Source: a virus. From it: a stretch of 58,438 bases of DNA. Numbering within the stretch: the first letter of the stretch is position 1; each line of letters opens with the position of its first letter. The translations under genes were made by a program, and so were the position numbers. The stretch lies in IMG/VR virus record IMGVR_UViG_3300045988_075769, positions 1 through 58,438 of that record. One strand, written 5' to 3'. Of this stretch, positions 4,852 to 15,999 are shown in pieces. A model generated the notes under the pieces. The model made no database searches, was not told where the DNA came from, and saw only the letters and a program-made list of their open reading frames with translations.

Positions 4852-5733
4852 TCAATTCTCCAAGAAATCCTCTTGATTCAGAACTTGATTTACAATTCGT
4901 TCTGTACATTCTTTAATAACAGTAGATGCTGGGACGTGATCTTCATAAGCTATGTTTTCATATTGTGCTCCTGCATATTCAAAGAACCTTTTGGAAAGTA
5001 TTTCTGCATCCGCACGGCACAACGGCTTTAATTCGTATTGCAACGGAAATCTTCTTGTAAGCGCAGGGTCAATCCTATCAAATCGGTTTGTTGTTCCGAT
5101 AATGATGACATTGTTCGGCAATCTATCCATTTCTTGCATAATCGCAATAACAACACGGTTCATTTCCCCAACGTCATCTTTTTGCCCACGAGCCATTCCG
5201 ACCGCATCTATTTCATCAAAACAAAGAACGCAAGGAACGGTTCTCACATAATCAAAAATTCTTGCAAGGTTAGATTGTGTTTGTCCTAAGTGCGAATCAA
5301 CTAGACTTGAAAATTGAATCCTCAAAAACGGAAGTTTTGCTTTATGTGCGATATACCTAGCCAGCATGGTTTTTCCACATCCGCTTTGCCCATAGAGCAT
5401 CAATGCCGGCAAATAAGGAATGCCCATTTCATTCAATTTTTCAGATGCTCGATAAATGGCAACAGTTTTCTGCGTTATACTTTTTTCTTCGTTCCTAAGA
5501 AGGAATCTTGCTTCCGGAAATTCTTCTGTATCCTCTGCGATCAAAAGATGCTGTAAGTTATATGGCAATTCAATAAATTCTCTTTTGCTTTCCAACTTGC
5601 GAAGCATATTTTCTTTAAACCGCTCATCTTTTTTGGATGATATGGAATTCAAAATGGTTTTAACGGCTTTTTGCGCGTTTCGCATATCTCCATCGCAAAC
5701 AAATCGAATAAGGCATCGTTCACTATCATTCAT
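4852..5733 (-). CDS. AAA+ ATPase (classic clade)
   Basis: Walker A GQSGCGKT, Walker B VLCFDEID, sensor-1 IIGTTN and Arg residues PALTRRF. The start overlaps the upstream RHH gene stop by 8 nt. Confidence 0.85.
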   Translation of the reverse strand: MNDSERCLIRFVCDGDMRNAQKAVKTILNSISSKKDERFKENMLRKLESKREFIELPYNLQHLLIAEDTEEFPEARFLLRNEEKSITQKTVAIYRASEKLNEMGIPYLPALMLYGQSGCGKTMLARYIAHKAKLPFLRIQFSSLVDSHLGQTQSNLARIFDYVRTVPCVLCFDEIDAVGMARGQKDDVGEMNRVVIAIMQEMDRLPNNVIIIGTTNRFDRIDPALTRRFPLQYELKPLCRADAEILSKRFFEYAGAQYENIAYEDHVPASTVIKECTERIVNQVLNQEDFLEN

Positions 5734-6298
5734 CTAAGAAATCCTCCAACTCAATCTTCCCTTCTGCCGCCGCCACTGCCAGAGCATACACGAACTGTCC
5801 AATCGTCATTCCGTGCCGTCTTGCTTCACGGTTGATGTACTTGCGCTCTTCCTCGCTCATAAGGATTGTAATGCGTTTTGAACGCTTTCCGTCACCGCTT
5901 GCAACGCCTTGATGCGATTCCGGCATCGGGATTTTTTTCTTTGTCAAACCAGCTTCGGCTAGTGCGCCGGGAACATCACCTTGTTCGATAAGACGTTGAA
6001 CTTCTTTCGCCTGTTTCAGCTTCTTTGGCTTACTTTCGCTGACTATGGCACGGTTTGGCTGTGTTTCGCTGTCTTTGGCTTGCTTCGGCTTAATACTGCT
6101 TAATTCCGCTTCACTTGGCTGTGCATGGCTGTCTGTGGCTTCACTGGGCTTAATCGGTACTTGTTCGGCATTATTCGGCTTTATTTGGCTTACTTCTTCT
6201 TCCTTTGGCTCACTTCGGCTTAATGTCTGCTCCGAAAAAACAGGCTGGAAATCAAAGCCGCCAAGCAAGCCGGATGTTTTTTTGCTGGTTGACTTCAT
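5726..6298 (-). CDS. RHH protein, candidate ParG/omega-like centromere-binding partner of ParA
   Basis: C-terminal KRITILMSEEERKYINREARRHGMTIGQFVYALAVAAA is RHH-like. The N-terminus is a 10-aa-periodic K/P/S/E-rich tail. Confidence 0.55.
   Translation of the reverse strand: MKSTSKKTSGLLGGFDFQPVFSEQTLSRSEPKEEEVSQIKPNNAEQVPIKPSEATDSHAQPSEAELSSIKPKQAKDSETQPNRAIVSESKPKKLKQAKEVQRLIEQGDVPGALAEAGLTKKKIPMPESHQGVASGDGKRSKRITILMSEEERKYINREARRHGMTIGQFVYALAVAAAEGKIELEDFLDE
6011..6230. repeat. About 21 tandem decamers in strict 10-bp phase (NNNNTT[G/C]GCT)
   Basis: Counted directly. 16 of 22 consecutive 10-bp windows from 6011 (16 of the 20 in 6021-6220) end in GCT, 12 of them in GGCT (6030, 6060, 6080, 6090, 6120, 6130, 6140, 6150, 6180, 6190, 6210, 6220). 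Confidence 0.85.
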
Positions 6299-6657
6299 TT
6301 TTCTTTCTCCTTCTTACCGCCTATTCCTAGAACTTTAAGAATTTCTTCCGGGATTCCGCTTGCGGAATTGATTTTTTCTACAATTTCCATCAATTCATCT
6401 TTATTCAGCTGAACGGTTGCTATGTTTTCTTTGGAAGGACTTTCTGGCGCGTCCGTCCAGTATTCTACATCTTGCATATAAAAGTCGGTTTGAATGTTCC
6501 ACCACTGATACTCACCAGTATGAATATTGTAACAATATCTTGCTGTAAGATACGTTCCATATTTCGTATATACTAAAAAAACAAGATTTTCCCTATGATT
6601 GTACGAATCAAGTTTTGGTGGGTCGTATTTCGCACTATGCCATATCCGCTTGTTCAT
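6295..6657 (-). CDS. DUF551-like protein
   Basis: N-terminal WHSAKYDPPKLD ... YWTDAPE pattern is typical of DUF551. Start and stop overlap the neighbouring genes by 4 nt each. Confidence 0.55.
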   Translation of the reverse strand: MNKRIWHSAKYDPPKLDSYNHRENLVFLVYTKYGTYLTARYCYNIHTGEYQWWNIQTDFYMQDVEYWTDAPESPSKENIATVQLNKDELMEIVEKINSASGIPEEILKVLGIGGKKEKEK

Positions 6658-7424
6658 TTTGCATCCCCCTTTACAATCTTCTTTGCTAGTTCTTTGAAAT
6701 CCTCTGCGCTGGTACTCTTTGCCGTGTCACCGCAAAACAGGCTGTGACGCTCTGCCTGTGCCTTGCGAACGCCCATAGACGGTCTAATCTTCACGTCCAA
6801 CAGCCTTGTTCCCATGCTTTGTGCAATCACAGGAAGCTGCTCTACAACCTCTTTGGACAGATTCTCACGGCTCTTGTACTGGTTCAGAAGCAGACCTTCA
6901 ATCTTCAAAGTCGGGTTGAAGTATCTGCGAACGTCACCAATGGTCTGCGAAAGCTGGCTCAAACCAGCAAGTGCATATCGGTCTGCTGTAATGGGCACAA
7001 TGATGCTGTTGGCGGCAATCAGAGCGTTTACAAGCGCAAGACCGAGCTGCGGGGGAGTGTCCAGAACGATGTAATCGTACCGTTCTGACACGGATTCCAG
7101 CGCTTCACGCAGCCGGAAGTTCTTGCCAATGTCCCGGACAAGCTGCTCGTCAATGTCCTTCAATGCGCTGTCTGACGGCAGAATGTCACCAGCTTCACAG
7201 TGCTGTATTCCTTCTTCTACCGTACCCTGCCGGGTCATTACATCAAACAAAGTACACACTTCCTCTGTCTGCGCGCCGTAGGTGTCCGTTGCGTTGCACT
7301 GGGCATCGCAGTCCACCAGCAACACTTTCTTGCCAAGCAACTGCAATGCACCAGCCAGACAGGTGCTTGTGGTAGTCTTTCCTGTGCCGCCCTTCTGGTT
7401 GGCGACAGCTATGATTTTTGCCAT
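6654..7424 (-). CDS. parA: ParA/Soj-type partition ATPase (small, no N-terminal HTH)
   Basis: Deviant Walker A NQKGGTGKTTT, plus LLVDCDAQ and IVLDTPP motifs. 256 aa. Confidence 0.9.
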   Translation of the reverse strand: MAKIIAVANQKGGTGKTTTSTCLAGALQLLGKKVLLVDCDAQCNATDTYGAQTEEVCTLFDVMTRQGTVEEGIQHCEAGDILPSDSALKDIDEQLVRDIGKNFRLREALESVSERYDYIVLDTPPQLGLALVNALIAANSIIVPITADRYALAGLSQLSQTIGDVRRYFNPTLKIEGLLLNQYKSRENLSKEVVEQLPVIAQSMGTRLLDVKIRPSMGVRKAQAERHSLFCGDTAKSTSAEDFKELAKKIVKGDAK

Positions 7425-7681: not shown

Positions 7682-7891
7682 TTATTTTTCTGGTTCTTCA
7701 GGAAGCGGCATCCAATGGGTTACATCTTTTAGAACTTCGTTGTCCTTCCATACATCAACGGAATCCCTTTCCCACCACAACGAACCATATCTTCCTCTTG
7801 CCAAATGCCCAACGTCAATATGCTTTTCCGTAAAAACAATTACATTTTCCCTATAATTTGGCAACTCATCTTTCACACTAATCCATCCCAT
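7682..7891 (-). CDS. DUF551 protein
   Basis: MGWISVKDELP ... THWMPLPEEPE is the canonical DUF551 pattern. ATG at 7891 follows AAAGGAG, and an alternative start lies at 7912. Confidence 0.7.
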   Translation of the reverse strand: MGWISVKDELPNYRENVIVFTEKHIDVGHLARGRYGSLWWERDSVDVWKDNEVLKDVTHWMPLPEEPEK

Positions 7892-7931
7892 TCTTTCTCC
7901 TTTCTGCATCATCTGCTCAATGCGCTACGTC

Positions 7932-9011
7932 TTACTGCTCTTGTAACGCTTCAATGGAATAGAACGCTGGCATATACTTGTCTACGATACCCGCTTTGTC
8001 TACGCTTCTAATCAGATAGCCAACAGGTCTGTCAGGGAACGGAGACCTGTCCAAAGACAAGATGTCCTTATACGCCGCCTTCACCGTGTCGTAAACCGCT
8101 TCTCTGCGTCTCGGCAGCTTGATTTCTGGATGCTCTTTCTTCATCCACTTCTCAACTACCTTCGCCACGTCAATGCAGTCCTGCTTTTCCAATTCGTCAC
8201 ACACAGACCAATCAAAATCATCGTATCCGCTTCTACGGGGCTTTCTCACGGCTTTTTGAGGTTCTACCGGCACTTCGCTTGCCTGAGCTTCAATCAGCGT
8301 CTCAGACGCTTTAATTTTGGGCTTGAACTTGACCGCCACAGCCTTTCGTGCCACAAGAACCGGTTCATAGGTCACTACGATGTCAGACACGGCATTGATT
8401 TCATCTACTGCAACGTCAAGCACTCGTTTGCGGAGATTCTTGTAAACATCGTAGCTTGCTTCCATCGCACCGAGCTGTTCTCTCAGCTTTTTCAGACTGA
8501 TTTCATGCGGCTTGCTGTCCATGTTCAACCAGTCCCGAAGAATCGAATAAAGCAAAATGCTGTATTGAGACTTCATTCTTGACGTGTAACGCAGCCGATA
8601 CCGAACATAGCCGCTTTCAGCAATGTCAAAGAAAATAGGGCGAAGGTCAGGGTTGCAAGTGATTGCCACAACATAAGACCTTGTTTCCGGCACATAGTCC
8701 AGTTTTGCCCTTGTGAAAAGGACAAAGCTCTCAAATGTTCCCTTTTCTTTGTCAATGGGAATCGACACAGTGTTGCCCAAAAAGTGCTTGATCTGCGGCT
8801 CAATCCTTCGTGCATCAAGGCTTTTTAACCCCAGCAGGTCTCTGTACTCTGCCAACGAAAACTCCACACGGCTGCTGTTTGGGTCTCTTGGATTTATTCT
8901 TGACAAGTAAACCTCTAGCAACCGAAGCTCGCCTGCCGTGTAGTCCCTGAACTTTGCCCACACAAGAGATTTACTTTTTTCGACAAGGTTGTTGTCGGAT
9001 ATTTTTTGCAT
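7932..9011 (-). CDS. repB: Rep_3/RepB-family plasmid replication initiator
   Basis: The N-terminal region NLVEKSKSLVWAKFRDYTAGELRLLEVYLSRINPRD...RYRLRYTSRMKSQYSILLYSIL matches the Rep_3 pattern. Iterons lie immediately upstream. Confidence 0.8.
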   Translation of the reverse strand: MQKISDNNLVEKSKSLVWAKFRDYTAGELRLLEVYLSRINPRDPNSSRVEFSLAEYRDLLGLKSLDARRIEPQIKHFLGNTVSIPIDKEKGTFESFVLFTRAKLDYVPETRSYVVAITCNPDLRPIFFDIAESGYVRYRLRYTSRMKSQYSILLYSILRDWLNMDSKPHEISLKKLREQLGAMEASYDVYKNLRKRVLDVAVDEINAVSDIVVTYEPVLVARKAVAVKFKPKIKASETLIEAQASEVPVEPQKAVRKPRRSGYDDFDWSVCDELEKQDCIDVAKVVEKWMKKEHPEIKLPRRREAVYDTVKAAYKDILSLDRSPFPDRPVGYLIRSVDKAGIVDKYMPAFYSIEALQEQ

Positions 9012-9054
9012 CTGTTCGCCTCCTTTTCTAGCCTAAAAGCAGTATATCACATAT

Positions 9055-9534
9055 TGGGGGACAAGTCAATACATTCTGTCCCCCGTGGCTTGTCTTTTTG
9101 TCCCCCATAGGGTCGTCAAAACGTCCCCCATGACTTGTCAAAACGTCCCCCATGCTTTGTCATTTCGTCCCCCATCTACATATTATATATTAAACAAGAA
9201 ATAAACAAGAGGTTAAATATCATCGTTAAATAGGCGATGACGATAATTTTCAACAATTTCTTTATTTTCTCATTCCAGCTTGTGAATAACTCAACCTTTC
9301 ATTTGCTGAATAAAGTCTTTCCAGCAATGATTAGTCTTATCTAACGTGTACAAAAAGTGGATGAAAAACTTTTGAGCCGGTGTTATGGGGGACGGATTGA
9401 CGAGATGCTTAATTGCAAACAACAAATTAACGCCAATCCGTCATTTATTCCGTGCGAATGTTGTCGATTTACAGCCTATGGGGGACGGAATGACAAGGCA
9501 AATTTGCCCGATAGGTGTACAAAAAGTGGATGAA
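9055..9534. other. Plasmid-type origin region (iterons, AT-rich spacer, inverted iteron cores)
   Basis: Inverted cores TGGGGGAC occur at 9055, 9386 and 9479. The tract 9176-9260 is AT-rich. A perfect 20-mer GTGTACAAAAAGTGGATGAA occurs at 9346 and 9515. Confidence 0.7.
9078..9175 (+). repeat. Five direct iterons at 22-23 bp spacing (core GTCCCCCAT)
   Basis: Cores begin at 9078, 9100, 9123, 9145 and 9167. The best-matching units read GTCCCCCATGACTTGTCAAAAC. Confidence 0.85.
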
Positions 9535-15543: not shown

Positions 15544-15612
15544 TTTTGTACAGCCGAGTTAAGCCGAAGTAAGAATAATGAAGCCTAATGAAGCCGAAGA
15601 AAGGAAAGAAAA

Positions 15613-15999
15613 ATGGGCAAATACAAGAAAGAAATCAAGCACTGCGAAAAGTGCAATAAGCCTTTTTCGGTGTTCCCGAACAGCACCGAAACGCTCTGCG
15701 CGAAATGCAAGGAAGCAGTGATTGAAGATACGTTGCGAAAGAACGGTTATGCGCCGAAGCATAGATTTGTGAGAAGCAACATGGATTCTGTTTCAGAGCA
15801 GCATGCTATCGTAGAAGCAGAATTTAAGGCATCGTGCGATTCTAACACGAGCGTTCAGAGAATTTGCCGTGACTGCGGAAAAGCATTCGAAATTTCTCGT
15901 GCAGAGCGCATTTTCTTTGAATCACATAACATGGCATTGCCTAAGCGTTGCCCGGCTTGCCGTAAAGTGAGGAAAGAAGCGAGGAAGGAGAACAACTGA
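15613..15999 (+). CDS. Zinc-ribbon protein (zf-trcl-like C-terminus)
   Basis: CEKCNKPF...CAKC, then CRDCGKAFEISRAERIFFESHNMALPKRCPACR. Confidence 0.55.
   Translation: MGKYKKEIKHCEKCNKPFSVFPNSTETLCAKCKEAVIEDTLRKNGYAPKHRFVRSNMDSVSEQHAIVEAEFKASCDSNTSVQRICRDCGKAFEISRAERIFFESHNMALPKRCPACRKVRKEARKENN

Follow-up and report, generated by a model that had tools for sequence, protein, structure and literature searches.

The stretch of DNA analyzed here, which we call the window, covers positions 1 to 58,438 of the IMG/VR virus record IMGVR_UViG_3300045988_075769 (58,438 bp in all). Its minus strand carries parA, the gene of a partition-type ATPase, and downstream of it the gene of a 190-amino-acid (aa) protein that we refer to as the centromere-binding protein (CBP), whose coding sequence harbors a long series of 10-bp direct repeats (the array, with units numbered 0 to 20). 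In what follows we ask what these repeats are for, drawing on the window itself, on natural alleles of the CBP gene and on diverged relatives. The features on which the argument rests are these:

6654..7424, minus strand: parA, encoding a small Walker-type ParA ATPase of 256 aa that lacks a helix-turn-helix (HTH) domain at its N terminus, as classified with Pfam
5726..6298, minus strand: CBP gene (190 aa), encoding an N-terminal tail, a linker, a short helical element and a C-terminal ribbon-helix-helix (RHH) domain
6245..6298, minus strand: N-terminal peptide of the CBP, MKSTSKKTSGLLGGFDFQ (codons 1-18), kept in all lineages
6020..6229, minus strand: array of 21 head-to-tail decamers in codons 24-93 of the CBP gene, candidate centromere/operator
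5744..5887, minus strand: C-terminal RHH domain of the CBP (residues ~138-185), with the beta-strand KRITILM
15552..15611, plus strand: second, six-unit array of the same decamer, AGCCGAGTTA AGCCGAAGTA AGAATAATGA AGCCTAATGA AGCCGAAGAA AGGAAAGAAA

On the coding (minus) strand the array runs without gaps and has the decamer consensus GCCRAAnTAA, which reads AGCCRAA across the junctions between units. Over the first six positions the consensus base is present in 19 (G), 18 (C), 15 (C), 19 (R), 15 (A) and 18 (A) of the 21 units, and position 10 is A in 17 of 21; the degenerate units are the outermost one (6229..6220) and units 3 and 7. On this strand one 10-bp register holds 12 copies of AGCC, and no other register has more than one. 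The original prediction, made from the letters alone, had described the repeats as read on the plus strand, and that description holds: there are 21 decamers, GGCT ends at 6030, 6060, 6080, 6090, 6120-6150 in steps of ten, 6180, 6190, 6210 and 6220, and the related CGCT/TGCT ends lie at 6040, 6070, 6100 and 6110. Its span for the array, 6011-6230, is better drawn at 6020-6229. It had also held that one hexamer is written in all three codon phases, and exactly seven unit starts do fall in each phase, with an identical consensus across all three.

The codon-recoding check that had been proposed for the periodicity was run, and none of 5000 synonymous recodings reproduces it: at period 10 the spectral power reaches 5.55, compared with 2.08 ± 0.59 in the recodings and 0.67 ± 0.41 in codon permutations, and the phased information content is 9.16 bits against 4.10 ± 0.52 expected (z = 9.7). 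The power is only 0.23 at period 30 and 0.60 at period 3, so that the repeat unit is 10 bp and not the 30-bp peptide repeat; an origin of the array in a 30-bp peptide repeat is thereby ruled out, and the 10-aa periodicity of the peptide is a by-product of the 10-bp repeat of the DNA. Tandem Repeats Finder (TRF) and a repeat finder likewise give a period of 10, and the top scores of a phased-motif scan across the whole window fall in 6020-6229. Coding and motif constraints are visible together in the use of TAA at decamer positions 8-10, which is frequent in two of the phases and absent from the one in which it would make an in-frame stop. An open reading frame (ORF) of 97 aa also runs through the array on the opposite strand (6045-6338, plus; MARFGCVSLSLACFGL...); it is a stop-free artefact of the complement of the repeat and could be miscalled as a gene.

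The same separation of DNA from peptide appears among natural alleles, for which we compared 78 distinct sequences from 83 collinear gene copies. Within the array, diversity varies with decamer position (Kruskal p = 0.002) and not with codon position (p = 0.12), whereas downstream of the array codon position governs diversity (p = 2e-29); conservation thus follows the decamer phase rather than the codon phase, also at synonymous-capable sites. Third-codon sites in the GCC core, all of them at least two-fold degenerate, have a nucleotide diversity (pi) of 0.064, against 0.206 at third positions elsewhere in the gene (p = 2e-4), and at first and second codon positions diversity is about threefold higher inside the array than elsewhere (0.063 vs 0.022, p = 9e-10). 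Among the decamer positions, variation is greatest at the A/G position, which is left free by the motif itself. Perfect GCC cores are kept in 73-78 of the 78 alleles, with the exception of unit 9 (66 of 78), while the degenerate units drift. The array is under purifying selection at the level of the DNA, and its amino-acid-changing positions are relaxed; the claim that selection acts on the DNA motif rather than on the peptide is accordingly borne out by both the recoding test and the allele diversity. Natural alleles of 180, 170 and 160 aa (P0188, P0236 and P0191) lack 10, 20 and 30 residues from the middle of the array, that is, 3, 6 and 9 decamers, and the coding array varies only by such three-decamer (30-bp) steps. 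The middle units are also the most degenerate in the population.

The original prediction had seen no other centromere near parA. This stands for the immediate surroundings: a repeat search near parA returned no other centromere-like repeat, the only repeats nearby being the Rep iterons at 9078-9500, and in the window the DNA upstream of parA offers neither intergenic room nor repeats. The array was also considered as a set of Rep_3 origin iterons, which is ruled out, the Rep iterons being unrelated repeats of ~22 bp (TGTCAnnnCGTCCCCCAT). What had been missed is the second array at 15552-15611, the only other phased run that a position-weight scan finds in the window; its score of 44.5 compares with a maximum of 20.1 and a mean of 8.6 in 200 simulations. 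It lies in a 69-bp gap and ends at the ATG of an ORF for a 128-aa Cys-rich protein (15613-15999), which is followed by the gene of an Erf-like recombinase. About 80 relatives retain it, even those with a different upstream gene, and it is better conserved than the flanking coding DNA. In one relative (L134) it is shorter by exactly one decamer, so the sizes of the indels fit their contexts: a step of one decamer in non-coding DNA and steps of three decamers in coding DNA. The second array is probably a secondary binding site or operator, or a pairing site, placed ahead of early recombination genes.

The protein in whose gene the array lies combines a conserved tail, a disordered middle and a candidate DNA-binding domain. 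In an alignment of distant homologues the N-terminal 18 residues of the CBP are near-invariant where the linkers and RHH domains diverge. The disordered N-terminal tails of type I CBPs activate ParA (PMC5393062), and by analogy the tail of the present protein may be its ParA-interacting, ATPase-stimulating element. An AlphaFold2 (AF2) model assigns a predicted local distance difference test (pLDDT) score below 50 to residues 20-84, which correspond to the array-encoded linker and are predicted to be disordered, and it places helices at residues 149-161 and 166-178, after the KRITILM strand. Pfam matches residues 138-174 to the NikA-like family, an RHH family, with an E-value of 1.7e-5 and 25.3 bits against a gathering score of 27. 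The best Foldseek matches are nearly all RHH proteins (CopG with a TMt of 0.84, Arc, AmrZ, NikA and AtaR; E 0.7-4), the only chain returned by a profile search of the PDB belongs to the CopG family (E 1.1), and searches of PHROGs and NCBIfam turned up nothing of use for the CBP. The protein had been called ParG-like, which is apt for its architecture of an N-terminal tail followed by a C-terminal RHH domain and does not extend to its sequence. Membership of the ParG family was rejected, as Pfam gave the NikA-like match only and neither sequence nor profile searches of the PDB returned a ParG chain. A ParB/Spo0J-parS system was likewise rejected: the protein has no ParB-type Pfam domain, and the repeats are direct rather than palindromic.

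Diverged members of the family, taken at 50% clustering, are few in number; their genes were recovered together with the flanking DNA. All of their CBPs share the N-terminal tail and the RHH domain, and the linkers between are unrelated. Each of the following lineages (beta-strand residues in brackets) has repeats of its own in the gene and a second site elsewhere:

P0132 (RMAIA): 12 decamers GnAGTCAGnG in the gene, in all three phases (synonymous permutation 7/1000); the second array has 6-7 copies and fills the gap from rep to the parA ribosome-binding site (L168, 1191-1260)
P0163 (RITII): 10+4 decamers TACAGCGGAA in the gene; the second array has 5 copies 3 kb away within another ORF
P0126 (RVSVP): ~19 nonamers CAGAATGAA in the gene; the second array has 3-4 copies upstream of the par operon
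P0136 (RVSVA): 20-bp units containing GCAGAATGA in the gene; the second site is a weaker repeat upstream of parA

The second arrays of P0163 and P0126 score 43.1 and 25.2, against null maxima of 16.6 and 15.6, and that of P0132 occupies the canonical type Ib centromere/operator position, upstream of parA. When matrices built from the in-gene repeats were scanned against the second sites, the diagonal values were 24.9, 33.2, 28.5 and 19.8, and the off-diagonal values ranged from -10 to 19.5, the highest of them between lineages with the near-identical beta-strands RITIL and RITII. The in-gene array and the second array thus co-vary from lineage to lineage. Across the lineages ParA identity is 96, 94, 88, 81 and 81%, and CBP identity is 47, 44, 39, 29 and 31%. 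In the synonymous-recoding test P0132 was significant (7/1000), P0136 was borderline, and P0137, P0144 and the 9-bp P0126 were not significant; the last three are not counted as independent proof of a DNA-level signal. No second array was found in L174, of the RMCVA lineage, and none stood out in L177, of the same lineage, in a scan limited to 10-bp periodicity. P0132 was not found in IMG/VR, and the promoter scan of L168 gave a single match, on the wrong strand.

Taken together, we favor, with a probability of roughly 63%, a type Ib-like ParA/RHH partition system whose iteron centromere/operator lies within the linker-coding part of the CBP gene. The presence of the same array in non-coding DNA and the joint change of in-gene and second arrays across lineages support in silico the proposal that the RHH partition protein has its binding site in the array. 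Several type Ib features are present: a small Walker ParA without an HTH domain, an RHH-type CBP (on weak statistics), a CBP gene downstream of parA and multiple short repeats near the par genes. A non-coding centromere/operator upstream of parA is missing from the window and present in the P0132-type relative. The point of departure from canonical type Ib systems is the position of the array inside the CBP ORF. We propose that successive RHH dimers would bind the one-turn iterons cooperatively, as pCXC100 ParB does, and that the conserved, disordered N-terminal tails, displayed on the resulting complex, would engage ParA; the candidate complex would in this way recruit ParA and confer stable inheritance. 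The array of ~20 iterons would act as the centromere and probably also as an operator or roadblock in the rep-par gene string. The centromere of a type Ib system usually doubles as its operator. Translated in three phases, the repeats would yield a compositionally tolerant, disordered linker from the N-terminal tail to the RHH domain, and their place in the linker-coding segment would make the CBP gene a single-gene specificity cassette.

Several observations weigh against this type Ib-like reading. The RHH assignment is statistically weak (a Pfam score below the gathering threshold, Foldseek E-values above 0.6 and a PDB E-value of 1.1), and an unrelated 120-aa ORF comes between parA and the CBP gene of the window. 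In the 9-bp P0126 lineage selection on the DNA and selection on the peptide are inseparable, and genes of the P0137, P0144, P0150 and P0159 types show a 10-bp signal that is weak or does not exceed that of the synonymous nulls. The contig IMGVR_UViG_3300045988_083472 (L087 and L125) has only a P0126-type CBP near parA, yet carries an AGCC mini-array before the Cys-rich ORF, which could be the orphan of a recent swap, a sign of cross-recognition between CBP types or the site of a different binder. In every array, whether coding or not, the purine-rich motif reads on the sense strand, and of the four short second arrays (window 15552-15611, L168 1191-1260, L083 2885-2925 and L175 5323-5372) three stop no more than about 10 nt from a ribosome-binding site or start codon.

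The last of these observations would also be compatible with an RHH protein that binds the arrays mainly as operators or roadblocks, in the manner of an omega-like global regulator of its own gene, the AAA ATPase gene and the early recombination genes, with partition served by another site or by none. The placement of short arrays immediately upstream of ribosome-binding sites and start codons speaks for such a role, as does the position of the in-gene array in one long string of genes whose sole consensus minus-strand promoter, according to a promoter scan, sits upstream of rep; the same scan found no consensus promoter within or beside either array. Type Ib CBPs are known to autoregulate (PMC3074162), and omega and the ParB of pMF1 bind several dispersed sites (PMC3235114). 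Against a mainly regulatory role are the conserved N-terminal tail and the constant linkage to a conserved ParA, the length of the array, whose ~20 units are far above what an operator needs and typical of centromeres, and the want of any other candidate centromere repeat near parA. Type Ib systems normally combine both roles, so the difference is one of emphasis, and we regard a purely or mainly regulatory function as improbable while keeping it at the head of the alternatives.

A less probable alternative, to which we give little weight, is that the decamers are read by some other factor—a host nucleoid protein, or a phage protein such as the 128-aa Cys-rich one—and that their place in an RHH gene is incidental. 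The AGCC mini-array that persists in the contig with only a P0126-type CBP fits this explanation. A host factor would not require lineage-specific motifs, however, and in four lineages a change of the in-gene repeat goes with a change of the second array, with repeat similarity tracking the similarity of the RHH beta-strands; the P0132 second array, moreover, lies exactly at the type Ib operator/centromere position upstream of parA.

Function at the level of RNA, with the purine-rich sense-strand repeats serving as a protein-binding or translation-modulating tract of the mRNA, is very unlikely. It would account for the motif of every array lying on the transcribed sense strand and for the three arrays that abut ribosome-binding sites, but in the in-gene case the orientation is explained by the need for a stop-free, hydrophilic linker. 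The spacing, which is strictly 10 bp (or 9 or 20 bp), fits the helical repeat of DNA and the known RHH centromeres, RHH domains bind DNA, and the array RNA matches no Rfam family and is predicted to fold less stably than its shuffles (z = +1.4). Least likely of all is a neutral by-product, a low-complexity linker grown by slippage and without function in its DNA: the linker is indeed disordered, its amino acids are poorly constrained and copy number differs among alleles, but substitutions should then be evenly spread over the decamer positions and the GCC core is protected at synonymous-capable sites too, the units are too short and too diverged off-core for homogenizing gene conversion, and a matching array is conserved in non-coding DNA, with cognate second arrays in other lineages.

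Among the known systems closest to this one is that of pCXC100, a type Ib system in which successive RHH dimers of ParB occupy a centromere of nine direct repeats, each of 9 bp and set without spacers (PMC3074162). Both systems have a small Walker ParA, a CBP whose N-terminal region is long and flexible and whose C-terminal part is an RHH domain, and short head-to-tail direct repeats of modest consensus; the 9-bp unit of pCXC100 is also the unit length of the P0126-type relatives. In pCXC100 one RHH dimer binds each repeat, cooperatively, and binding of that kind is predicted here. The two differ in that the centromere of pCXC100 is a separate, non-coding element near the par operon, whereas the array described here, at 12-21 units about double that length or longer, is translated within the CBP, and there is no detectable sequence homology between them. 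In the ParR/parC systems of pSK41 (type II) and R1, an RHH CBP binds tandem iterons of 10/20 bp or 11 bp, about one per helical turn, and forms a superhelical or U-shaped segrosome; the motor is the actin-like ParM, and parC lies upstream of the operon and overlaps its promoter. The 20-bp units of the P0136-type relatives recall pSK41, but here a Walker ParA serves as the motor and the array lies within a gene.

ParG (the TP228 ParF/ParG/parH system) and omega (the delta/omega system of pSM19035) are small proteins of 71-76 aa with short tails that bind tetramer boxes or 7-bp heptads in promoter regions. The module described here shares with them the type Ib logic of a disordered tail on an RHH protein activating ParA, a role that our tail would have by analogy; it differs in having no Pfam match to either protein and in a region of ~120 residues before the RHH domain that contains the candidate binding array. 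A single protein that serves as both centromere binder and transcriptional regulator at several sites has a precedent in omega, as cited in PMC3235114.

Conceptually the closest precedent for a cis site in the middle of the gene of its own protein is found in replication: the RepA_N initiators of the pSK41 family have their origin (Rep boxes) inside rep, in a central segment that encodes a dispensable linker joining functional domains (PMC5703833). That case concerns replication initiation and four Rep boxes as opposed to ~20 one-turn iterons, and no reading in three phases has been described for it. Centromere-like sites within coding sequence are also on record: Bacillus subtilis parB/spo0J has a parS inside the gene itself, as mentioned in PMC4442127, and type Ib ParB iterons of pMF1 are dispersed inside ORFs (PMC3235114). 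The former is thus also a site within the gene of the CBP, but it is a single 16-bp palindrome bound by an HTH/CTPase ParB, and the pMF1 sites are short, scattered and in other genes, whereas here a long tandem array forms a segment of the protein. A literature search, which was not exhaustive, returned no description of a tandem iteron centromere that, read in three phases, makes the linker of an RHH CBP.

The window encodes a large terminase, a portal, a major head protein, a tape measure protein, a DnaB-like helicase and an Erf-like recombinase, and is thus a tailed-phage genome; since these genes occur together with a plasmid-type maintenance module on the minus strand, it is a phage-plasmid. 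The order of the module is rep, two small ORFs, parA, a 120-aa ORF, the CBP gene and an AAA ATPase gene, and from rep to the last of these all ORFs lie on the same strand and overlap or abut, with the CBP gene downstream of parA. Besides the features given above, the module comprises:

7932..9011, minus strand: rep, a Rep_3-type replication initiator (PF01051, E 1e-22; PF21205, E 9.5e-13) that heads the rep-parA-CBP gene string
9041..9500: candidate origin with the ~22-bp Rep iterons, direct at 9078-9175 and inverted at 9382-9500
9069..9041, minus strand: promoter-like site before rep
6295..6657, minus strand: 120-aa ORF between parA and the CBP gene, without a Pfam match

Spurious ORFs across 9041-9500 give repeated "PMGD" peptides. 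The ParA matches PF13614 (E 3.5e-54, over residues 2-175) and PF01656 (E 1.5e-24), and its match to the NCBIfam model ParA_partition is partial (E 5e-30) and below the equivalog cut-off. The position between parA and the CBP gene, or immediately ahead of parA, is variable and holds another small ORF in each relative (L001 3570-3905; L002 3873-4157; L083 2935-3216) or none; in L085, L171 and L175 parA directly adjoins the CBP gene. It looks like a hot spot for the insertion of accessory genes within the par operon. A genuine DUF551 ORF lies upstream, at 7682-7912. At the other end of the CBP gene, the stop overlaps the start of the downstream gene of a 293-aa AAA ATPase (4852-5733) by 8 nt (5726-5733), which suggests translational coupling; in L001, L002 and L085 genes other than that of the AAA ATPase follow the CBP gene.

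Human-gut metagenomes contain the family in great abundance: it comprises more than 800 CBP clusters at 90% identity, nearly all of 190 aa, and more than 500 IMG/VR contigs carry it, each 55-60 kb in length. In PLSDB we found no homologues of the 190-aa protein, and among GenBank phages its only relatives are two unannotated fecal contigs. A scan of the GTDB species genomes with the CBP gave no match, and one with the ParA gave only generic relatives of at most 44% identity. L177 (2139-5176) has a P0150-type ParA-CBP pair ~1 kb downstream of the genes of ribosomal proteins L13 and S9 and not far from a RelB/ParE toxin-antitoxin pair, which suggests a chromosomal or integrated context for the P0150 lineage.

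Some relatives seem to record exchanges of the CBP gene. In L083 (4001-5218, and also in L084) there are two tandem CBP genes: a full P0126-type gene abuts parA and, after an ORF for a 77-aa Cys-rich protein, comes a truncated window-type gene of 106 aa with a GTG start, in which just the final five AGCC decamers remain, along with the RHH domain. This arrangement looks like a cassette replacement caught midway, and L083 and L085, each with a P0126-type gene beside a 94-96% identical ParA, appear to be natural swaps. More broadly, we put forward as a tentative proposal, somewhat short of even odds, that the CBP gene amounts by itself to a complete "centromere plus adaptor" cassette: the array that sets partition specificity would be the DNA of the protein's own linker, exchange of this single gene against a conserved ParA would switch the partition or incompatibility type, and this would be general for the family, with 9-, 10- and 20-bp repeats co-varying with the RHH reading head. 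Such a cassette might let a newly made CBP load in cis on its own template.

If the type Ib-like reading is correct, the array would be a natural case of two overlapping codes, a helical-turn DNA array translated in all three frames, in which selection at the DNA level is seen to prevail over that on the peptide. It would yield an annotation rule, namely that where the linker of a small DNA-binding protein shows a non-triplet periodicity, this can betray the protein's own binding site, and a set of directly testable pairs of motif and reading head for RHH recognition. Finally, it would widen the known repertoire of bacterial centromere architecture and would explain how partition specificity diversifies in these abundant, mosaic gut phage-plasmids, through the exchange of a single gene while the ParA and the tail stay constant.

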